From a virus (Duplodnaviria > Caudoviricetes), in the IMG/VR virus record IMGVR_UViG_3300032302_000065: DNA of 64,000 nt. One strand, 5' to 3'. The position numbers were made by a program, and so were the translations under genes. Below are positions 804-57,839 of the stretch, piece after piece (within the stretch, counting starts at the first letter, position 1; every line of letters begins with the position of its first letter). A model generated the notes under the pieces. The model made no database searches and was not told where the DNA came from. It saw only the letters and a list, made by a program, of their open reading frames with translations.

Positions 804-3800
804 TTAAGCAGGCACAGCAAATCTAAAGCTATTAGAGAATGTTGTAACAGCATTAGATAATTGAGTTGAACCGTCTTCTAAACTTCTCCATGATTGTTGA
901 ATTTGAGATGTTGATTGTCTCAATGTCATACGATATGTTTGTACAGGAGAAACTAAAACCCAATGGTCGGCAGCCGTTTGTGTTGAATCATAGAATAAGT
1001 TACTATCAATTGTAATACTAACAGTATCCATCAATGTACCCAAACCACTTGGAATAACTTTCATACCATATAAACGACCACGAACGTCTGGATCATATGC
1101 TGGTCCTAAAACAACCACCGGACTAAACATAAAACGTTTAGCATTGTATACGTTTGTGAATGTTGGTACAATTTGACCCATATGAATTTGAGGTATTACG
1201 TCAACGGTTTGAGCAAGTAATGCGTTACCAGTTGGGGTGTTAGGAGAAATATACGCTCCACTAGCAGCCAATTCAAGTTGGTGACCCCAACGTCCAGTTG
1301 TGATTGTCATGGCGCTATAAGTGTGTGAGTTTACACCAACTAAATCGGAAGCAGAGTTTCTTACTCTAGGCACAGCGATAACGTTTCCGTGAACGGGTGC
1401 GTTACCTGCGTTAGGCAATGTTGGATATTGAGATCCTCCAACTGGAAGTCTTGCACCATTAATATATCCAAAACATGGCCATGGAGCAATACTAGGTGTA
1501 GCAAGAACAGCAGATGCGCCCATACCTTGGAAAGTTTGTGAACCACCAACACCACCAGTTAAACTGAATGTGTTGTAAGCAACACCACTAGAACCTAAAC
1601 CGGAACCAGAATCTTCAGGTTGCGCTCTTTCAAATTCAACGCAACCAATCCAAGTTGTAGGTACGTTCGAAAAACTCTTACCCTGAATTAGGAAGTATCT
1701 TGGGTTTGCAAATAGATATAAGAATCCACCAGTAGTTTGTGAACCAACTTGTGTATCAAATGCACCACTAATACCACCGATAACTACAGAACTGGCAGCA
1801 ATTGTATTTGAAGGTGCGGTATATGTTGAAGTACCTTGATTTAATGTACCAGAAGCTAATGCTGTTGGGTTATTTGCCGCAATACCTAAAGTAGAAGGTG
1901 CATATTGAGATGATGTTGCCGGAATAGTTACGCTACCAGCAACCAAGTTAGCTAAAGTAAATGTAGTTGTTGCTTGCGATCCGATCATCACAGTACCACC
2001 AGAGCAGTCTGCAAGGTTAATACCCACACCGTTTGTTTGTGCATGTGTTGCAACCCAACGCTCATAAACTGGAGTGTTCCAACCACCAAGTGCTGTAGTA
2101 ATTGTCGATGTTGCGTTTGGTGTATAACCCGTTAAAATTGAAGGAGTTTGTGCAGATAGTGTTGCAACGTTTTGCATCAAAGGATAGAAACGGAATCCAA
2201 CATATTTTCTATCTAAACTTGTATTGAATAATGTTGTAGATGCTTCTGCTGATTTGTTAGCGCATGAATACACATACTCAATAAAGTCGGCACCAGTGTT
2301 AGGTGTATAAACAAGTGGTGGGTTTGCCGCAGTTGCGTAAATAGTATTTTCTAGTGTGGCACCGAGCGTAATAACAGCACCGTTAATTGACGCAATGTAT
2401 GTGTAGAGAGGTACTGTTCTTTGGAAAGGAACAGCACTGGCTATAGTTGCAGTTTGTTGAATTGTTGCAGATGTATCTGATGCAATTGCAGTAACAATTA
2501 AATGTTGACCAGCGGCATAAATTTCTGCACCAACGTGAAGTTGAGTCAAGAATGCAGTACCTGTTCCTGTAATTGTGTTAGTAGAAGCTGTGATAACACC
2601 AGTCAATGCAACAGATGGTCCGCCGCCGCCTGTAATTTTAATAAAGTTGTACTGACCAACAGTTGGTGCGGAAGCTACTGTAATAGTGTTTGTACCAATT
2701 GGGTAAACAGTATTCGTAGTTGCAAGCATTGTTGTTGCTTGACTCCACTTAGTACCAGGTAAGTTAGAACCTGCTGGAGCGGTTGTACCACCTTCTCTTG
2801 TACCTTCTAGAACATAACCGTGAATTTTCTTTTTCTTATAGATAGTTGAAGATGTTCCAAGGGTGTGGGTAAAATCACTATTAACCCTAAATCTTGTATT
2901 GCTTAGAATTTGTGTGACAGTAATTTCAGTACCATCGATAATCAAATCATCGCCAACACGAAGTTCAGTTAAAAATGCACTATTCAAACCGTTAATATAA
3001 GAATCTTCTCTACGGAATGTAATACCTTGCAAGACTTGACGAATAACACCTACTGCGGTACTTGCATATCCGGTATAGTCTGTAGTATATGCTAAGTTAA
3101 TTGGGCTACCAGCTACAGTACTTTGAATACCATCACCAGTAGTTACAAAGTTAATTGTTCTTAATTCATCACCAATCCAAACTTGATCTCCAGTTACAAG
3201 ATCCCAAGCAAAGTTTGCACCAGTTGCGATCAATCCGCTAAATTGCGCTGTTGCTACCGAATATGCAACAGAAGGTGTCTGGCTAAGTGTATAAGCACCT
3301 AAACCACCTGGAGTGAAGAAAGTGACAGATGTTGATGAAAGATTACCTGTAAGAGCCTTGCTGAGTGTAATAGTTGTACCGGAAATTGCTCTAACATATG
3401 TGCTGTTTGGAATACCAGCAACAGTTGCACCGTTACCGGCAATTAATTGTCCAACTAAAAGACCTGATGTTGATGCGACAGTAATAGTATTAGCACCGCT
3501 TGATCCTGTTGCAGTTGTTGTTAAAATACCAGAACCACTAGCACCAAATTGCTGATCTAAAATATATGTACCAGCAGGAGAAGTACCAGTACCAGAAGAT
3601 GTTGCGCCTAATAGTGCACCAATTGGAATAACACCAGTTAATGTTGCGGCAACTGTCAATGTTGTTCCTGATGAACTAAGAGAGGTTGATTGTATTAATG
3701 TACCAGAAACTGCATTCGCAATAGTACCACGTGCATATGTTTTATAACGCAAATTACTATCAGTAAAGTCCATTGCAACCGTTACTGTCATTGCAGTATT

Positions 3801-16218: not shown

Positions 16219-16970
16219 GTTCTTTTCTCCAATTTAAAATCTTTTTTCTGATAGAATAATTGCCTATATGCGGCTCTTATACGTGATGGGAATGAATATT
16301 TATGTTTATCAAATTCTGCAACTGTAGCTTTTCCGGATACTGCGGTAATAGTTTCTCTTTTAAACGGAATAATTTGAAGTAATGGTGTTCCCGCTGAAAC
16401 TTCCCACTCACCTTCACGCAATGCAGTAAACACCCAATTAATTTGGTGAAACACATCTCCATCTATAACTCCAGGATACATAAACAAATCTTCTAAAAAT
16501 GGATTTTGATAATATGCTGGTAGTAAATAGAAAGACCAACCCGGTTTAGTGATAACTCCCCATGGCACTGGCATCTTGTTGCAAACACCAGGCGTTACAA
16601 ATTTTCCTTTTTCATCTTTATCAATTGGGCAAAAATTGTCAACTAATTTAAAATCTAAAGGCTGATTATCTTTATATTCTGCCGCAGAAGGACCATTTTT
16701 CATAACGGATGTTCCCTGTCTAGTTGCTTTGATTTTAAAATCAACCCATGCAGGAACAATATATCCAGACTTCATGTAATCGACCATACCAGGACAGTTC
16801 ATGAATTTTGCAGCCGCAGGTCTATCTTTTTGGGCTCTAACCCAATCTGGATATACATCTTTAGCCAGTTTTATGTCAGTCAATGGTATAGCATATGCTC
16901 CACCTTCATTGCTACAAAATTTGATTAGCGGCTCATCATCACTAAAAAATTCTTTAATTTTACCAATCAT
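16215..16970 (-). CDS. DUF6065-like protein, paralog 2
   Basis: CPGMxDxMxSGY, PWxxxTKPGWS, GVIDGD, GTPLLQIIPFKRE pattern shared with the neighbouring gene. Confidence 0.6.
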   Translation of the reverse strand: MIGKIKEFFSDDEPLIKFCSNEGGAYAIPLTDIKLAKDVYPDWVRAQKDRPAAAKFMNCPGMVDYMKSGYIVPAWVDFKIKATRQGTSVMKNGPSAAEYKDNQPLDFKLVDNFCPIDKDEKGKFVTPGVCNKMPVPWGVITKPGWSFYLLPAYYQNPFLEDLFMYPGVIDGDVFHQINWVFTALREGEWEVSAGTPLLQIIPFKRETITAVSGKATVAEFDKHKYSFPSRIRAAYRQLFYQKKDFKLEKRT

Positions 16971-18419: not shown

Positions 18420-19115
18420 TCAATCATTTATGACGGAAACATATCCTCCTGGAGGAACTGTAATTGATACTCCAGAAGTTACGTAGTCAACTGAAATCGG
18501 AGTTGGTCCAATAACAGATGCTGGAGTGTCTGATGCGCCACCAGGAAGTGGTACACCTAAAACAACATAAGAACCACCTTGATTTCCCGGAATAGTATTT
18601 CCAGGTACGGTTGGATTGTATGTTGTTGGATTATAATACGTTGGATTTGTATAGTAAAATGTGAACTGATAATATCCACTTGTCATTTGAGCAGTATAGC
18701 CACCACCAGTCCAATATTCATATGCCGACCAAGAATTCCCATAACCAAAAATATTATAGCCCCAAACATAAGTGTTAAAATACGGACTTGGTGAAAAAAA
18801 ATAATAATCTATAAACCCATATGGATATCCATCCCAATATTGACGTATTTGATACACATATTGAAAATAGTATCCGGTTGTCACAAAGTATCCAGGAACA
18901 GTAGTCTGATTTCCACCGGATGCATAATTTCCAGGAACAGTATTTCCTGGTACAGTTGGATTGTATGTTGTTGGATTTCCTGGAGACGATCTACCCTGTA
19001 ATCTAAAACTAGTTTTTCCATAAGGAGGATAGTAAGTCCCAGGCGCATTAAACGTAACTGTCTCCTTGACAATTGCGTTTGTTTTTTCTCTTCTTAATAA
19101 ACCTGATATCTTCAT
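18420..19115 (-). CDS. 231-aa Tyr/Gly/Pro-rich adhesin-like protein, copy D (last transcribed)
   Basis: One of four equal-length tandem paralogs; TFNAPGTYYPP N-domain, VPPGGYVS C-terminus, aromatic core. Confidence 0.7.
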   Translation of the reverse strand: MKISGLLRREKTNAIVKETVTFNAPGTYYPPYGKTSFRLQGRSSPGNPTTYNPTVPGNTVPGNYASGGNQTTVPGYFVTTGYYFQYVYQIRQYWDGYPYGFIDYYFFSPSPYFNTYVWGYNIFGYGNSWSAYEYWTGGGYTAQMTSGYYQFTFYYTNPTYYNPTTYNPTVPGNTIPGNQGGSYVVLGVPLPGGASDTPASVIGPTPISVDYVTSGVSITVPPGGYVSVIND

Positions 19116-19123
19116 ATTATTAT

Positions 19124-19819
19124 TTAATCGTTTATAATGGACACATATCCACCTGGAGGGACTGAAATTGATATCCCACCTGATATATAGTTAACTGAAG
19201 CTGAAGTTGGACCGACAACCGGCGCAGACGAATCACTAATACCACCAGGAAGAGGCACACCTAAAACTATATATGACGATCCTTGGTTTCCTGGAATTGC
19301 ATTTCCAGGTACAGTTGGATTGTATGTTGTCGGATTATAATACGTTGGGTTGAAATAGAAATAAGTTGGATTACTGTATCCAACAGGTACTGCTTGAGTA
19401 TAGCCACCACCAGTCCAATAATCATATAGCGACCAAGTATTCCCATAACCAAAAACATTATAGCCCCACACATAACTGTTAAAATACGGACTTGGTGCAA
19501 AATAATAATAATCTATAAACCCAAATGGATATCCATCCCAATATTGACGTATTTGATATACATACTGAAAATAAGTAAATTGATACACAAAATTACCCGG
19601 AACAGTAACTTGATTAGCATTTGCTGTAACATTTCCAGGAACAGTATTTCCTGGTACAGTTGGATTGTATGTTGTTGGATTTCCTGGAGACGATCTACCC
19701 TGTAATCTAAAACTAGTTTTTCCATAAGGAGGGTAATATGTTCCTGGAGCATTGAATGTGACAGTCTCCTTGACAATCGCATTGGTGCGCTCTCTTCTTA
19801 ATAAACCTGATATCTTCAT
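19124..19819 (-). CDS. 231-aa adhesin-like protein, copy C
   Basis: Gap-free paralog of the flanking genes. Confidence 0.7.
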   Translation of the reverse strand: MKISGLLRRERTNAIVKETVTFNAPGTYYPPYGKTSFRLQGRSSPGNPTTYNPTVPGNTVPGNVTANANQVTVPGNFVYQFTYFQYVYQIRQYWDGYPFGFIDYYYFAPSPYFNSYVWGYNVFGYGNTWSLYDYWTGGGYTQAVPVGYSNPTYFYFNPTYYNPTTYNPTVPGNAIPGNQGSSYIVLGVPLPGGISDSSAPVVGPTSASVNYISGGISISVPPGGYVSIIND

Positions 19820-19827
19820 ATTATTAT

Positions 19828-20523
19828 TTAATCGTTTATAATGGACACATATCCACCAGGAGGAACAGAAATTGATATTCCAGCCGTTGAATAATCAACA
19901 CCGACTGGAACTGGACCAACAACCGGTGCTAAAGAATCACTACCACCACCAGGAAGTGGTACGCCTAAAACTGTATATGACGATCCTTGGTTTCCTGGAA
20001 TTGCATTTCCAGGTACAGTTGGATTAGAATTTGTCGGATTATAGTAGGTTGGATTCGTATAGTAAAATGCTCCAACAAAAAAACCAACGGCTATTTGAGC
20101 AGTATAGCCACCACCAGTCCAATAATCAAAGTGAGCCCACTCATTACCATCGCCCCAAATATTATATCCAAAAACACCAAATGAATAATACGGACTTGGC
20201 TGAAAATAATAATATCCTATAAAACCAAATGGATATCCAGTCCATCCTGTGAATATTTGATACACATACTGAAAATAAAAAAATGATGTCACAAAATATG
20301 CAGGAACAGTCTCTTGATTTCCACCGGATGAATAATTTCCTGGTACAGTATTTCCTGGTACAGTTGGATTGTATGTTGTGGGGTTACCCGATGATGATCT
20401 ACCTTGCAATCGAAATGATGTCTTTCCGTAAGGAGGATAATACGTTCCAGGAGCATTGAATGTAACCGTTTCTTTAACGATTGCTCTTGTTTTTTCTCTT
20501 CTTAGTAATCCAGAAACTTTCAT
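19828..20523 (-). CDS. 231-aa adhesin-like protein, copy B
   Basis: Gap-free paralog of the flanking genes. Confidence 0.7.
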   Translation of the reverse strand: MKVSGLLRREKTRAIVKETVTFNAPGTYYPPYGKTSFRLQGRSSSGNPTTYNPTVPGNTVPGNYSSGGNQETVPAYFVTSFFYFQYVYQIFTGWTGYPFGFIGYYYFQPSPYYSFGVFGYNIWGDGNEWAHFDYWTGGGYTAQIAVGFFVGAFYYTNPTYYNPTNSNPTVPGNAIPGNQGSSYTVLGVPLPGGGSDSLAPVVGPVPVGVDYSTAGISISVPPGGYVSIIND

Positions 20524-20532
20524 AGCTTCTCT

Positions 20533-21228
20533 TTAATCGTTTATGATAGATACATATCCGCCTGGAGGAACAGAAATTGATATACCAGAATTTACGTAGT
20601 CAACTGAAATTGGAGTTGGTCCAATAACAGGTGCTGATGAATCACTACCACCACCAGGAAGCGGCACACCTAAAACTGAATATGATGCACCTTGATTTCC
20701 TGGAATTGTATTTCCCGGACTTGTTGGATTAGTATATGCAGGATTATAGTAGGTTGGATTTGTATAGTAGTATGCGGGCTGAAAATAACCAGCGGCTACT
20801 TGAGCAGTATAGCCACCACCAGTCCAATAAACATAATAAGACCACTCATTACCATCGCCCCAAATATTATATCCAAAAACACCATATCCATTATCGGAAA
20901 ATGCTGAAAAATAATAATAAGCAATAAACCCAAATGGAAATCCATTCCATTGCATGTATATTTGATACACATACTGAAAATAAAAAAATGATGTCACGAA
21001 AGATGCTGGTACATATCCTTGATTTCCGCCTGATGCATAAGTTCCTGCAACAAAATTTCCTGGTATAGTTGGATTGTATGTTGTCGAATTGCCTGGTGTT
21101 GATCTTCCTTGCAATCTAAAACTAGTTTTTCCATAAGGAGGATAGTAAGTCCCAGGCGCATTAAACGTAACTGTCTCCTTGACAATTGCGTTTGTTCGCT
21201 CTCTTCTTAGTAATCCAGAAACTTTCAT
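20533..21228 (-). CDS. 231-aa adhesin-like protein, copy A (first transcribed)
   Basis: Gap-free paralog; starts 16 nt after the tail fibre stop. Confidence 0.7.
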   Translation of the reverse strand: MKVSGLLRRERTNAIVKETVTFNAPGTYYPPYGKTSFRLQGRSTPGNSTTYNPTIPGNFVAGTYASGGNQGYVPASFVTSFFYFQYVYQIYMQWNGFPFGFIAYYYFSAFSDNGYGVFGYNIWGDGNEWSYYVYWTGGGYTAQVAAGYFQPAYYYTNPTYYNPAYTNPTSPGNTIPGNQGASYSVLGVPLPGGGSDSSAPVIGPTPISVDYVNSGISISVPPGGYVSIIND

Positions 21229-53294: not shown

Positions 53295-54533
53295 TTAGCA
53301 TTTAACTAATGTGCTTAGTAAATGTGGTCCATCCCATGTTTGGCTTTCGATTCTGAATTGACCTTTGAAGCCATAAACTTCTTTAGCCCACATCCTTTCA
53401 TTGTCGAAATAAAATGGAAATGTTTGTTCTGTGATGATGTTCACATGTGTTGGATCCCAAAAGGCAGCCGCATGAGGAAATGCAGGTGTCTTTGAATAGA
53501 ATTTTCCTCCAACTTTCAATACTCGCCAAATCTCACTCATCAATTCTACAAATGGATATCTACGATTTGGATTATACATCAGTCTAGGAATGTGTTCGAT
53601 GAAATCATGTGCAGTCACATAATCAAAGAAATTATCTATAAACGGAATTGGTTCAATAACTAAATCTGCCCGTGTGATTTTATTCTTAGTATCATCTCTA
53701 ACATCAATACCATATACATGTTTTGCGTTAAATGGATTTTTAGGATACTCACCACAACCTAAATCAAGTGAATAAGTTTCTTCTGGTTCTTTAGTGTATC
53801 GAATAATGTCTTCGCTACAATCAGTTACCTTAGGTAAATCTTTACTCCACAATTCTTTTAAAGTTTCTGCTGTCATAACACCATTTGGTCCATGATAGTG
53901 ATGGCTTCCCCATCCACGAATTCTATCGTGTTCTGGCACTTTAGTTTGAATCTGCAATCTACGTTCAAGCATACCTCTACTAGCAATACAATTTGCATAG
54001 TGGAAAATCATCATCTCTTCATTGTTGTATGAAGCAAAATGGCGACCAACATCATATTCCATTGTTTTTACATTATGCAAACTTCTAGCACGGCGAGCCA
54101 TAAAGTCTGTCTTATAGTGAATACCTTGTTTCTTCTGTGCCCACAAAGGTTTAGTTCTGTCTAACTCACCATTTGGATTCCAATCCCAGAATGTGATTGT
54201 TGGAATTAAATGTTGTGTAGACCTAATCGTGTCAACTAAAAACTTTTTATAATCGCCAACTAAAAATTCTGTGACATTTAAACAAATGCGCCAGCCTTCA
54301 ATCTTACGTTCATATTCTAATACTTCAACGTCAACAAGTCTAGCATTAAATTCTGAATTTTTAGATTGTACAACTTCCCATGTCGGACAAATCTCTTTGA
54401 TGATTTCACGGGACCTGTCTGTAGATGCATAGTCGATAATGATACCATGATCGAAAATTTTCTTATGATGTTCTAGCCACCAAGGTAGAATATATTCTTC
54501 ATTATAAATGTGTGCAATTACTGTTGATGCCAT
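53295..54533 (-). CDS. Glycosyltransferase (GT-A/GT2-like) - SAM methyltransferase fusion
   Basis: N-half YNEEYILPWWLEHH..DYASTD; C-half LDLGCG, DFIEHI, EIWRVLKVGG, DPTH. Confidence 0.8.
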   Translation of the reverse strand: MASTVIAHIYNEEYILPWWLEHHKKIFDHGIIIDYASTDRSREIIKEICPTWEVVQSKNSEFNARLVDVEVLEYERKIEGWRICLNVTEFLVGDYKKFLVDTIRSTQHLIPTITFWDWNPNGELDRTKPLWAQKKQGIHYKTDFMARRARSLHNVKTMEYDVGRHFASYNNEEMMIFHYANCIASRGMLERRLQIQTKVPEHDRIRGWGSHHYHGPNGVMTAETLKELWSKDLPKVTDCSEDIIRYTKEPEETYSLDLGCGEYPKNPFNAKHVYGIDVRDDTKNKITRADLVIEPIPFIDNFFDYVTAHDFIEHIPRLMYNPNRRYPFVELMSEIWRVLKVGGKFYSKTPAFPHAAAFWDPTHVNIITEQTFPFYFDNERMWAKEVYGFKGQFRIESQTWDGPHLLSTLVKC

Positions 54534-54540
54534 TATGTCC

Positions 54541-55230
54541 TCAATTTTCAATTAAACTTGTATCTATCAAAATCGGTACTGTGCTTGTCTTTAATAAGTT
54601 TTCAACTGATCCCGGTTTTACATTTGGGTTTCTCAATTGTCCAAACTCATAGAATGAACGTCTAGGTCCACCAACATGACAAATGCCTGTTTGTTCACTT
54701 AAACATTTTTCTGCAATCTTAGGTGCAATGATATCTATGTACTCTTTAGATGAATACTTATCTGTGAACGCAGTATCAAATGGAAAATCAACATCACAAA
54801 ATTCAGTTCTTATGACTAATGATTTTTCATAGATAAGCGTAGCCATCTCACCAGCAACTTTAGATTTTGCATATCGTGTTAATGGATTAGGCAAATCTGT
54901 GTGTGTGTAGTTTCCTTTTTGTCCATCGAATACATGTGACGATGAAATAAAAACAAATCTAGCATTCTTACTCATCGCATGTTTTAATGCATTACATGTA
55001 CCTTGAATGTTTGTTTCAATTGTGTCAATAGGATTTTTTTCCGCATCAGCAAATTTTGCGATAGCCGCACAATGAATAACCAAATCACAATCAAATAGTA
55101 TAAAGAAGAGTGGATCAGTAATGTCTAACTCACTACTACTAGGCGCAATGATTTCATGTCCTTTTACTCTTAAATGGCGAATTAAATTTTTGCCAAGAAG
55201 TCCTGACCCACCAGTTAACAAGATTTTCAT
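54541..55230 (-). CDS. rmlD: dTDP-4-dehydrorhamnose reductase-like SDR
   Basis: TGGSGLLG, HCAA, ISSSHVFDG, PNPLTRYAKSK. Confidence 0.75.
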   Translation of the reverse strand: MKILLTGGSGLLGKNLIRHLRVKGHEIIAPSSSELDITDPLFFILFDCDLVIHCAAIAKFADAEKNPIDTIETNIQGTCNALKHAMSKNARFVFISSSHVFDGQKGNYTHTDLPNPLTRYAKSKVAGEMATLIYEKSLVIRTEFCDVDFPFDTAFTDKYSSKEYIDIIAPKIAEKCLSEQTGICHVGGPRRSFYEFGQLRNPNVKPGSVENLLKTSTVPILIDTSLIEN

Positions 55231-56192
55231 TTGCCTAAAACTTTCTGAAATGTTGTTATGTTAGAATATTCATCACTATCAAAATTATAGCTTAACGGAT
55301 CCATATTGTCAAGTATCTCAGCCAAAGAATCTAAAGGGGTAAACTGTGCTTTGAAACCCAATTCATCTTCGATTTTTTCCGTACTTACTTTGTAGTTACG
55401 AACATCATTGTTTTCATTGATAACTAAGTCAACAACATATCCTCTTTTTCTCAACTCACCATGAATCGCTTCGCCCAACTGACCAATCGTCATATTGCCG
55501 CCAGAGAGGTTGTAAATACCAGATACATTCAAGTCTGCTTCTAATGCTTTTTGATATCCCTGAATCACATCACGAATATCTACAAGAGGGCGCCAAATCT
55601 TTGGATTGTTAACTACAATTTTTTGTGTTGTGAATGCACTCTTCAACATAGTGTTCACAACTAAATCATAGCGCATTTTTTGTGACCATCCACCAACTGT
55701 ACCTTTACGGAATACAATCGGTTTAAAGTTATCATCTTCTAAAGTTTCTAAACCACGTTCACATTGTAGTTTAGAAATACCATATGCATATGCAGGCTTA
55801 ACAAGACTGCTTTCATTTAGTGTCTTGTTCTTTGTGAAGCCATATACGCTACAAGAACTAGCACAAATAAAACGTTTTACTCCGGCTTCTTTAGCAATGA
55901 ATGCAAGATACATTGGTGCAGAAGAATTCTCAATGAAGTTTAAGTCTGGTCTGAACATCGCCATTGGATCATTAGACAATCCAGCAAGAAACAAAACAGC
56001 ATCATATGTTGTCAAGTCTTCCGGTTTAATATCCCACAAACTTTTCTTTTCTTTTGAAATGCTTTTAGTTAAATTATCACCAAACCAAAAGTTATCAATA
56101 ACATGCACTTTGTATCCCATGCGGGTACTCAAGTGATTTGAGAGTCTTGTGCCAATGTAGCCAGCGCCACCAACGATAAGAATATTTTTCAT
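55227..56192 (-). CDS. NAD-dependent nucleotide-sugar epimerase/dehydratase
   Basis: GGAGYIG, ASSCSVYG, YGISK, DLVVN. Confidence 0.88.
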   Translation of the reverse strand: MKNILIVGGAGYIGTRLSNHLSTRMGYKVHVIDNFWFGDNLTKSISKEKKSLWDIKPEDLTTYDAVLFLAGLSNDPMAMFRPDLNFIENSSAPMYLAFIAKEAGVKRFICASSCSVYGFTKNKTLNESSLVKPAYAYGISKLQCERGLETLEDDNFKPIVFRKGTVGGWSQKMRYDLVVNTMLKSAFTTQKIVVNNPKIWRPLVDIRDVIQGYQKALEADLNVSGIYNLSGGNMTIGQLGEAIHGELRKRGYVVDLVINENNDVRNYKVSTEKIEDELGFKAQFTPLDSLAEILDNMDPLSYNFDSDEYSNITTFQKVLGK

Positions 56193-56194
56193 AA

Positions 56195-56749
56195 TTAGAA
56201 TTTTGGATTTAGTTTATAATCTGCGAAAGAACCTGCGGCTCTGTCTTTGTCTGATAGAATGAAGTCTTTGATTGTATCAATTGATTGCCAATCGATATTC
56301 AAATCTGTATCAAATGGATTAATTGCGGCTTCTGCTTTGGAATTATGTACTGCTGTGCATTTGTACATTAGATGCGTATATTCTGCTAATGAAAGAAACG
56401 CATGACCAAAACCTGCTGGTACCCATAACTGATTGTTTGATTCTGGTCCTAACAACTCAGCATGATACTGTCCGTATGTTGGAGAATCTTTTCGTAAATC
56501 AATTGCAACATCAAGTCCATATCCATGAGTGACACGAACCAATTTACCCATTGGTTTGTCCCATTGGAAATGAATACCTCTTAGAACATGTTTTTTTGAT
56601 ACGGATTGATTGTCTTGAAGAAATTTTACGCCAAGTGCGTCTTCAACTTCTGGTCTGAATGTCTCTGTAAAGAAACCACGATTGTCTCTATAAACAGGTA
56701 GATTGATGATTTTAACATCAGGGATTATTTTCGAATCAGTTATTTTCAT
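56195..56749 (-). CDS. rmlC: dTDP-4-dehydrorhamnose 3,5-epimerase
   Basis: DNRGFFTE, QDNQS.S..VLRGIHFQ, DLRKDSPTYG, WVPAGFGHAF, LSDKD. Confidence 0.93.
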   Translation of the reverse strand: MKITDSKIIPDVKIINLPVYRDNRGFFTETFRPEVEDALGVKFLQDNQSVSKKHVLRGIHFQWDKPMGKLVRVTHGYGLDVAIDLRKDSPTYGQYHAELLGPESNNQLWVPAGFGHAFLSLAEYTHLMYKCTAVHNSKAEAAINPFDTDLNIDWQSIDTIKDFILSDKDRAAGSFADYKLNPKF

Positions 56750-56764
56750 TATTACTCCATAAAT

Positions 56765-57030
56765 TGGTGACAGGTTATTCTGTTACGAGGAAACCTGTCG
56801 AAACCCTAGTCAGCGTTTAGGCTGCCAATGCGAACTGTGAGTCGTTTGCGTTTACTTTTTTTTAGTTTTAACATCTACTCTGATGTGCTGTCCACTCTGG
56901 TACTCTTTGCCCTGTCGAAACTATGCACCCCCATCAAAAACACACTTCATGGATGGAATGTGTTTTTGGTGGAGGTGGGGGGATTCGCACCCCCGTCCAG
57001 AACCTTTTTCTCTTTGCTTCATACAGCAAT
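56765..57030 (-). ncRNA. ssrA: Circularly permuted (two-piece) tmRNA; 5' boundary of the acceptor piece uncertain, may extend to ~57150
   Basis: Acceptor piece with T-arm GGGGG-TGCGAAT-CCCCC and CACCTCC-A-CCA ending at 56967 precedes a coding piece starting GGGGGTG at 56932; 7-bp acceptor stem with G3.U; tag ORF 56849-56817 = ANDSQFALAA*. Confidence 0.93.
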
Positions 57031-57170
57031 ATCAATCATAAGGTGGCCAACCAGTGTCCGCCTTACTATCTTCTTCAAAATTATTCCAATCGTAGGTTGC
57101 AACTTTGTAAATCCAAAATGCATGTAGTCCTACAACAAGAATTAATAAAATTATATCACTATTTATCATG

Positions 57171-57839
57171 TTAGTCAATCAGTACGGCATCATATGCTTC
57201 ACGGTAAGAAATAAAATCTTTGATATAGTCGTTGCGTTTCTTAATGAACACTTGTGGATGTTCAGAGTCAACAGCAATCATAATTACAATTTGTGATACT
57301 GGTATACCAGTTCGTTCTTCATACATGACTGCGTATGCAGAGCATTGCATAAAGTATCCTTTAATCCAACTCTCTTCTTTTAACTTACTTGAAGTCTTGA
57401 AGTCAATGATAGATAACTTACCATCATATTCTGCAATACAGTCAACTCTACCAGCAACTTTTAAATGATGAGAATACAAAGGAATCTCTAGCGCATGAAT
57501 GTTATTTACATGTTCATCTAATAGAGGTTGTAAAGACTTGAACATAGCAACAGAATCTGGCATCGTCTTACGTGCATAGTCTTCTTCATTGTTCAAATAA
57601 TTTTCGCAAATCTTATGTACTCTAGTGCCACGGCTGGATGCTTTAGTGGAGATACGATTGGCTTCTTCTTCACCGACACGTTTTCGCCATTCTATGATTT
57701 TATCTTTACCATGCTGAGATGTGATAGTAGTCACGGAAGGATATAGATTGCCTTCAGGCGTCTTGTAAAAACGCTTGCCGTTTATTGTTTCGGTTTCTAG
57801 GTCATAATCAATATCACAACCAACATGTTTAAAGTTCAT
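57171..57839 (-). CDS. PD-(D/E)XK exonuclease (T4-like phage family)
   Basis: YPSVTT, RGTRVH, AGRVDCIAEYDG..IIDFKTS, Q..AYA. Confidence 0.88.
   Translation of the reverse strand: MNFKHVGCDIDYDLETETINGKRFYKTPEGNLYPSVTTITSQHGKDKIIEWRKRVGEEEANRISTKASSRGTRVHKICENYLNNEEDYARKTMPDSVAMFKSLQPLLDEHVNNIHALEIPLYSHHLKVAGRVDCIAEYDGKLSIIDFKTSSKLKEESWIKGYFMQCSAYAVMYEERTGIPVSQIVIMIAVDSEHPQVFIKKRNDYIKDFISYREAYDAVLID

Follow-up and report, generated by a model that had tools for sequence, protein, structure and literature searches.

The stretch of viral DNA analysed here (the window, 64,000 nucleotides) encodes a portal protein, tail sheath, large terminase, baseplate wedge, tail fibres, gp32 and PhoH, and this set of proteins marks it as part of a T4-like myophage. 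On its minus strand the window carries a gene for a circularly permuted two-piece tmRNA, whose features are collected in Table 1. A sequence-only reading had proposed a phage-encoded RNA of exactly this kind. Each of the elements that it listed on the minus strand is present where it was placed, exact to the base, and the portal, sheath, terminase, baseplate, gp32 and PhoH genes bear out the phage origin. Run on the whole window, ARAGORN called a single gene, a permuted tmRNA (tmRNA*) with the tag ANDSQFALAA, and the locus scored 124 bits with the Rfam model tmRNA_permuted (RF04321; curated cut-off 47) and 122.3 bits with beta_tmRNA (RF01850; curated cut-off 84), the two matches having E-values of 1e-36 (beta_tmRNA) and 8.8e-24. 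The match is far beyond chance, and the permuted two-piece assignment is upheld by ARAGORN and by both models. Because all three call the gene at default settings, the accompanying remark that standard annotation easily misses it did not hold.

Table 1 Features of the permuted tmRNA gene and its flanks, with positions in the window
Feature	Position	Strand	Remarks
PD-(D/E)XK exonuclease gene (PF12705)	57171-57839	-	Upstream neighbour; outside the RNA
Sigma-70-type promoter	TTGACT 57178-57173; TGnTATAAT 57158-57150	-	17-nt spacer; promoter scan
Leader, ~107 nt	57037-57146	-	From the -10 box to the tmRNA; alignment with L076, L173, L203 and L197
Acceptor piece, 62 nt	56967-57028	-	P2b and P2a 5' strands, T arm, acceptor 3' strand, CCA
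P2b inter-piece helix	TGCTGT 57028-57023 / ACAGCA 56891-56886	-
P2a inter-piece helix	GTTCTG 57003-56998 / CAGGGC 56914-56909	-
T arm	56994-56978	-	GGGGG/TGCGAAT/CCCCC
Acceptor 3' strand	CACCTCC 56977-56971	-	Then discriminator A and encoded CCA ending at 56967
Intervening segment, 34 nt	56966-56933	-	Hairpin stacked on the acceptor stem (fold)
Coding piece, ~164 nt	56769-56932	-	Acceptor 5' strand through 3' hairpin
Acceptor 5' strand	56932-56926	-	GGGGGTG
D-loop analogue	56921-56925 (covarying part)	-	CATAGTTTCGAC; in the coding piece
Pre-tag hairpin	56885-56872	-	Followed by an A-rich linker
Resume context	56855-56850	-	GTAAAC
Tag frame	56849-56817	-	GCA AAC GAC TCA CAG TTC GCA TTG GCA GCC TAA; ANDSQFALAA*, ARAGORN
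Stop-codon hairpin	56826-56809	-	In the coding piece
3' terminal hairpin	56799-56769	-	GACAGGTT/AACCTGTC
Possible terminal pseudoknot, 4 bp	AGGG 56807-56804 + TCCT 56791-56788	-

The gene has the permuted order, with the CCA end at 56967, G1 at 56932 and a 34-nt spacer between them that would be removed on maturation. The tRNA-like domain comprises a 7-bp acceptor stem with a G3.U70 pair, a discriminator A, the 3' CCA, a 5-bp T stem and a 7-nt T loop, and GAC lies directly 3' of GTTCTG (57003-56998), ahead of the T arm. The G3.U pair, which had been singled out as the alanine determinant, is present in the window and invariant in all 61 aligned family members (see below). The T loop reads UGCGAAU (56983-56989, minus strand), with a G in place of the usual Psi55. 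Folding of the precursor gave z = -3.2 and recovered the T arm, the pre-tag hairpin and the 3' hairpin; in the same fold the acceptor stem is continued by a near-perfect spacer hairpin. In the tag frame the coding part, GCA...GCC, spans 56849-56820 and the stop codon TAA lies at 56819-56817 on the minus strand. U at -5, A at -4 and C at -1 of the resume codon match the frame-setting context of E. coli tmRNA.

The sigma-70-type promoter upstream is a strong one, matching the consensus at 11 of 12 positions and having a TG extension in addition. Its -35 box overlaps the exonuclease stop codon, and its spacer contains GATAAATA (57167-57160), a sequence similar to T4-type late promoters. In L173 and L203, both close relatives, the tmRNA follows immediately on this promoter, and the inner motif is exactly TATAAATA. 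TATAAT was found no more than 40 nt upstream of the tmRNA in 57 of 118 family loci, and judging from these motifs the gene has a promoter of its own, both here and across the family. In the alignment of the leader with its relatives, the leader proves to be an insertion present only in the window and in the near-identical contig L076. It holds an ORF of 35 codons behind AGGA that runs into the tmRNA and shows no sign of coding, since both of the only two differences from L076 change an amino acid. At the other end, no intrinsic terminator was found after the 3' hairpin in the window, which leaves the coding piece without a defined 3' end.

The rmlC start lies 20 nt beyond the 3' hairpin. It belongs to a deoxysugar cassette of four genes (rmlC, an SDR epimerase, an rmlD-like gene and a glycosyltransferase-methyltransferase fusion; 53295-56749, minus strand) that stands between the tmRNA and the gp33/gp59/gp32 block and was found in the closest relatives only (L076, L080, L127, L181 and L197). 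Elsewhere in the window (18420-21228, minus strand), a tail-fibre-like gene has next to it a row of four ORFs, every one exactly 231 codons long, which look like tandem paralogues.

To place the RNA in a family, IMG/VR was scanned for the tag and, in a separate scan that made no use of the tag, for the 3'-hairpin loop motif. At loci with the loop motif ARAGORN called 134 permuted tmRNAs, and 135 calls parsed into their parts gave at least 121 distinct mature sequences. The beta_tmRNA cut-off was passed by 12 of 14 sampled members. Covariation was analysed in an alignment of 61 members, and separate counts on all 121 sequences agree with it. In the alignment the proposed pairs were paired in 94.3% of cells compared to 83.1% in shuffles, none of 500 shuffles scoring as high, and 29 of 45 pairs had changed on both sides. 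The covariation score was 0.318, whereas sliding the partners gave at most 0.075. The acceptor stem and T arm were 100% paired, with compensatory changes at all five T-arm pairs. Furthermore, the two helices that would hold the pieces together were almost as regular: P2a was 100% and P2b 99.2% paired, each with four of its six pairs changed on both sides. In the stop-codon hairpin, the Leu codon covaries at its third base with a position downstream (A-U 71, G-C 46 in the 121-sequence set).

The T loop and the D-loop analogue also vary together. All 54 sequences with the usual T loop (UUC..., U55) have GG in the D-loop analogue, and 63 of the 64 with the UGC... loop (G55), as in the window, have AG. 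We read this covariation as an altered form of the tRNA contact G18-Psi55, and it supports a correctly folded tRNA-like domain. We found no description of a G55 T-loop variant of tmRNA.

We also looked for pseudoknots. A PK1 in the window RNA was rejected: for its second stem, the pre-tag hairpin loop and the linker offer matches of 3 bp at most, which are inconsistent between subfamilies, and a well-supported plain hairpin with an A-rich linker stands in its place. PK1 is usual in tmRNAs and not universal, so that its absence does not exclude the RNA from membership. The terminal pseudoknot AGGG/TCCT is possible; its pairing is conserved, with a compensatory A-U in a few members of the larger set, but no double changes were seen in the 61-sequence set.

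The intervening segment varies from 20 to 183 nt across the family, and near-identical relatives have a spacer of 88 or 175 nt where the window has 34 nt. It seems that the spacer can take up small genes, as a slot would. The 175-nt spacer of L197 contains an ORF of 50 codons, and that of L006 a hydrophobic ORF of 24 codons. At the 3' end of the acceptor piece, three members (L057, L117 and L157) read ...CCACCT where the others read ...CCACCA; in these the 3' CCA is incompletely encoded and would need addition after transcription. A further viral contig, L140, has two permuted-tmRNA matches 600 nt apart (2127-2328 and 2951-3156), the second of them partial (58 bits).

Selection on the tag was assessed in 40 ten-codon tags, which had been retrieved by the hairpin-loop motif and not by the tag itself. 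Positions 1-3 (AND) were invariant except for one Glu at position 3, and positions 6-10 ((F/Y)ALAA) except for one Val at position 7, so the LAA ending that the earlier reading had connected with ClpXP, and that ARAGORN calls in the window, is kept in these tags as part of a C-terminal ALAA. Positions 4-5 vary freely. At the kept positions synonymous codons are used side by side (GAC 27, GAT 12; TTA 22, TTG 18; GCA, GCT and GCG). By this codon pattern the tag is selected at the amino-acid level, as would be expected of a working degron.

In the IMG/VR tag scan AND(S/T)QFALAA occurred in more than 120 viral contigs. This was the only family tag searched for in bacteria, where it was found in 1 of 185,579 species genomes. 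The bacterial match (L121, CAIMDH010000093.1; tag ANDTQFALAA) comes from the Lake Erken MAG bin-2863 and is a 3-kb contig with a family tmRNA and three tRNAs. The MAG (0.9 Mb) has its own one-piece standard tmRNA beside smpB, and a one-piece tmRNA scored over the cut-off in 17 of 21 of its small-genome relatives. We regard the contig as probable phage DNA that was misbinned. The exact tag string had no match in the main texts that we searched, nor in the supplements of two key papers.

What phage carries the gene? The portal is ~60% identical to cyanomyophage portals, and at the DNA level there was no close match to the window among 50,697 deposited phage genomes. IMG/VR contains a near relative, complete at 150,107 bp and with terminal repeats, whose exonuclease is 97% and whose tmRNA is 94% identical to those of the window; no photosystem gene, integrase or SmpB was found in it. 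In size and gene order the phage resembles pelagimyophages and the Methylophilales phage Melnitz more closely than cyanophages. We found no integrase in five complete genomes. An SmpB profile search gave no match in the window, and Pfam SmpB none in five complete (including the close relative G027) and five partial related phage contigs, which implies that the tmRNA would have to use host SmpB. A proteobacterial host, as the earlier reading took from the tag, is plausible, the RNA being of betaproteobacterial type. The type of an ssrA gene is no proof of host, however, since Melnitz has an alpha-type ssrA and a host of the beta lineage (PMC9004378).

In 84 of 111 family loci the tmRNA is preceded, on the same strand, by a homologue of the exonuclease, a conserved neighbour that marks the slot. 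We rejected a functional link to the tmRNA as the cause of this adjacency, because the exonuclease is a core gene that stands beside gp33 in cyanophages whose tmRNA is elsewhere or absent. The distances between tmRNAs and those between exonucleases are weakly correlated (Spearman 0.17, reached by 3 of 999 permutations). So weak a correlation does not support strict vertical inheritance, and it fits with cassette exchange.

Two-piece tmRNAs of phages are on record. That of Melnitz was reported by Buchholz et al. 2022 (PMC9004378), whose count of two-piece forms in phage databases came to 53, with 50 being marine or aquatic; the kind is therefore already known, and the window gene is a further example. 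Like Melnitz and the Pelagibacter phage Mosig (Kyanoviridae), the window combines a permuted tmRNA with a T4-like marine myophage of 141-150 kb (PMC9004378). The slot is common to all three, with ssrA downstream of PhoH and the PD-(D/E)XK exonuclease, and the protein encoded ahead of the Mosig ssrA shares 46% identity with the window exonuclease. An early-type promoter is also shared, as is the lack of photosystem genes, seen here in the close relative of the window. The RNAs themselves differ. Melnitz and Mosig have ssrA genes of alpha type (RF01849, 106.7 and 67.6 bits), with the tags ANDNYVPVDYALAA and GEDNFALAA, whereas that of the window is beta-type (RF01850, 122 bits). Melnitz has a glutamine riboswitch (RF01739 match) whereas Rfam gave no riboswitch match in the window, and the tmRNA is followed by gp33 in Melnitz and Mosig but by the deoxysugar cassette here. 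With the RNAs of Melnitz and Mosig, sequence similarity extends over 44 nt of the tRNA-like domain only. When the 50,697 deposited phage genomes were searched by blastn with the tmRNA region, the matches were short stretches of the tRNA-like domain in two records, and no family member was among them. The cyanophage S-SSM7 has a tmRNA of cyano type at another site. By these assignments all three permuted types occur in this phage group, and one slot can hold either an alpha or a beta type. In the Xanthomonas phage Rb1 (PQ569993.1, ~16268-16696; L230 1474-1902) we also came across an unannotated permuted tmRNA (RF04321, 103 bits; tag ANDDNFRPALRLAA), the record having no feature at that place.

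Among bacterial RNAs, the window RNA can be set beside the betaproteobacterial two-piece tmRNA (RF01850; Sharkady and Williams 2004, as cited in PMC9004378). It shares the gene order, the tRNA-like domain, the pre-tag hairpin, an ANDxxFAxAA-style tag and a 3' hairpin with a CCUYGUAAC-like loop. Unlike the bacterial model, it is carried by a phage, it leaves the mid-P2 part of that model unmatched, and its T loop has G55 with a compensating change in the D loop. The two-piece tmRNA of Caulobacter crescentus was proven experimentally (Keiler, Shapiro and Williams 2000, as reported in PMC9004378). We assume the mechanism of that account, in which the precursor is cut by tRNA-processing enzymes and the pieces stay paired for trans-translation; the Caulobacter RNA as reported there is alpha-type, chromosomal and established by experiment, whereas the window RNA is known from sequence. 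Phage tmRNAs as such are no recent discovery: one-piece forms are found in the mycobacteriophage Bxz1 group and Bacillus phage G (PMC4131195), and huge phages have tmRNAs and in some cases smpB too (PMC7162821). As in those phages, the phage would supply its own ribosome-rescue RNA; in contrast to their standard forms, the window gene is permuted, and its lineage is without smpB.

We consider it highly probable that the gene is a functional, permuted beta-type ssrA of a lytic T4-like myophage of ~150 kb, acting in ordinary trans-translation. From the established pathway we infer that host RNase P, alanyl-tRNA synthetase, EF-Tu and SmpB would be used. Host RNA polymerase with sigma-70 would initiate from the 57178-57150 promoter, to which the late system of the phage may contribute as infection advances. 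The precursor would fold with the 34-nt spacer hairpin stacked on the acceptor stem, host RNase P would cleave ahead of G56932, and host tRNA 3'-end enzymes would trim to the encoded CCA at 56967, leaving two RNAs (~62 and ~164 nt) joined by the acceptor stem, P2a and P2b. Host alanyl-tRNA synthetase would then charge the RNA via G3.U70, and host SmpB and EF-Tu would deliver it to ribosomes stalled on broken mRNAs. Translation would resume at GCA, add ANDSQFALAA and stop at UAA, freeing the ribosome and marking the tagged peptide for ClpXP-type proteolysis. Processing, charging, tagging and a gain to the phage are all expected on these grounds; the likely benefit is that the ribosome pool would be kept working while messages are degraded in infection, and that amino acids would be recycled. 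Four features speak against a functional ssrA: the plain hairpin in place of PK1, the G at the Psi55 position of the T loop, the lack of an intrinsic terminator and the 107-nt leader ahead of the RNA.

A more specific role, in counter-defence, seems unlikely to us. The RNA might rescue ribosomes stalled by abortive-infection RNases, anticodon nucleases or mRNA-cleaving toxins, or might replace host tmRNA destroyed in infection. The gene lies inside phage tRNA arrays in many family members, and phage tRNA arrays counter tRNA-targeting defences; the early-type promoter would also fit action from the start of infection. However, no defence or anti-defence gene is linked to the tmRNA, its conserved neighbour is a core exonuclease that is also present in cyanophages without a tmRNA at that spot, and nothing separates the idea from general ribosome maintenance.

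Re-routing of the tagged proteins is, in our estimate, slightly less probable still. The phage RNA might outcompete host tmRNA for SmpB and attach a phage-specific tag, and the tagged proteins would go to another adaptor or protease, or bulk proteolysis would feed phage synthesis. The distribution of AND(S/T)QFALAA, seen in more than 120 viral contigs and in a single bacterial species genome that probably owes it to phage DNA, is in line with this, and for phages without SmpB competition for the host protein is unavoidable. Yet the parts of the tag that are known to matter (AND and ALAA) are ordinary for proteobacteria, and only the two middle positions are unusual.

We give similarly low odds to the beta-type RNA being a phage-resident lineage that moves as a cassette among T4-like phages, and not one lately copied from a host. 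The presence of at least 121 distinct sequences in IMG/VR and of none in the 50,697 deposited phage genomes fits this, as do the near-absence of the exact tag from bacteria and the weak congruence between tmRNA and exonuclease. The private tag, a T loop unable to carry Psi55, the missing PK1 and the spacer slot would on that reading be features of the lineage's own. If it were true, such a lineage could re-route tagging during infection, and could even be the reservoir from which permuted tmRNA genes reached bacteria.

Finally, a functionless passenger, either an ssrA lately captured from a host or what is left of the attachment site of a temperate ancestor, would recall that tmRNA genes are common integration sites with fragments in prophages (PMC9004378; PMC4131195), but it is close to refuted, as the gene is complete and has its own promoter, at least 121 distinct phage relatives keep the structure and the tag by compensatory and synonymous changes, and five complete genomes yielded no integrase.

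The functional beta-type ssrA that we favour reveals no new mechanism, and the new points are modest. It offers a clean case of a little-studied phenomenon, in which a phage brings a ribosome-rescue RNA and would rely on the SmpB of its host. A beta-type ssrA in the slot where published relatives have alpha-type genes is relevant wherever host switching is argued from ssrA type. The window RNA represents a large family known so far from metagenomes only, and this family provides natural variants for the study of what a tmRNA requires: G55 with its compensating change, the absence of PK1, and spacers of 20-183 nt.
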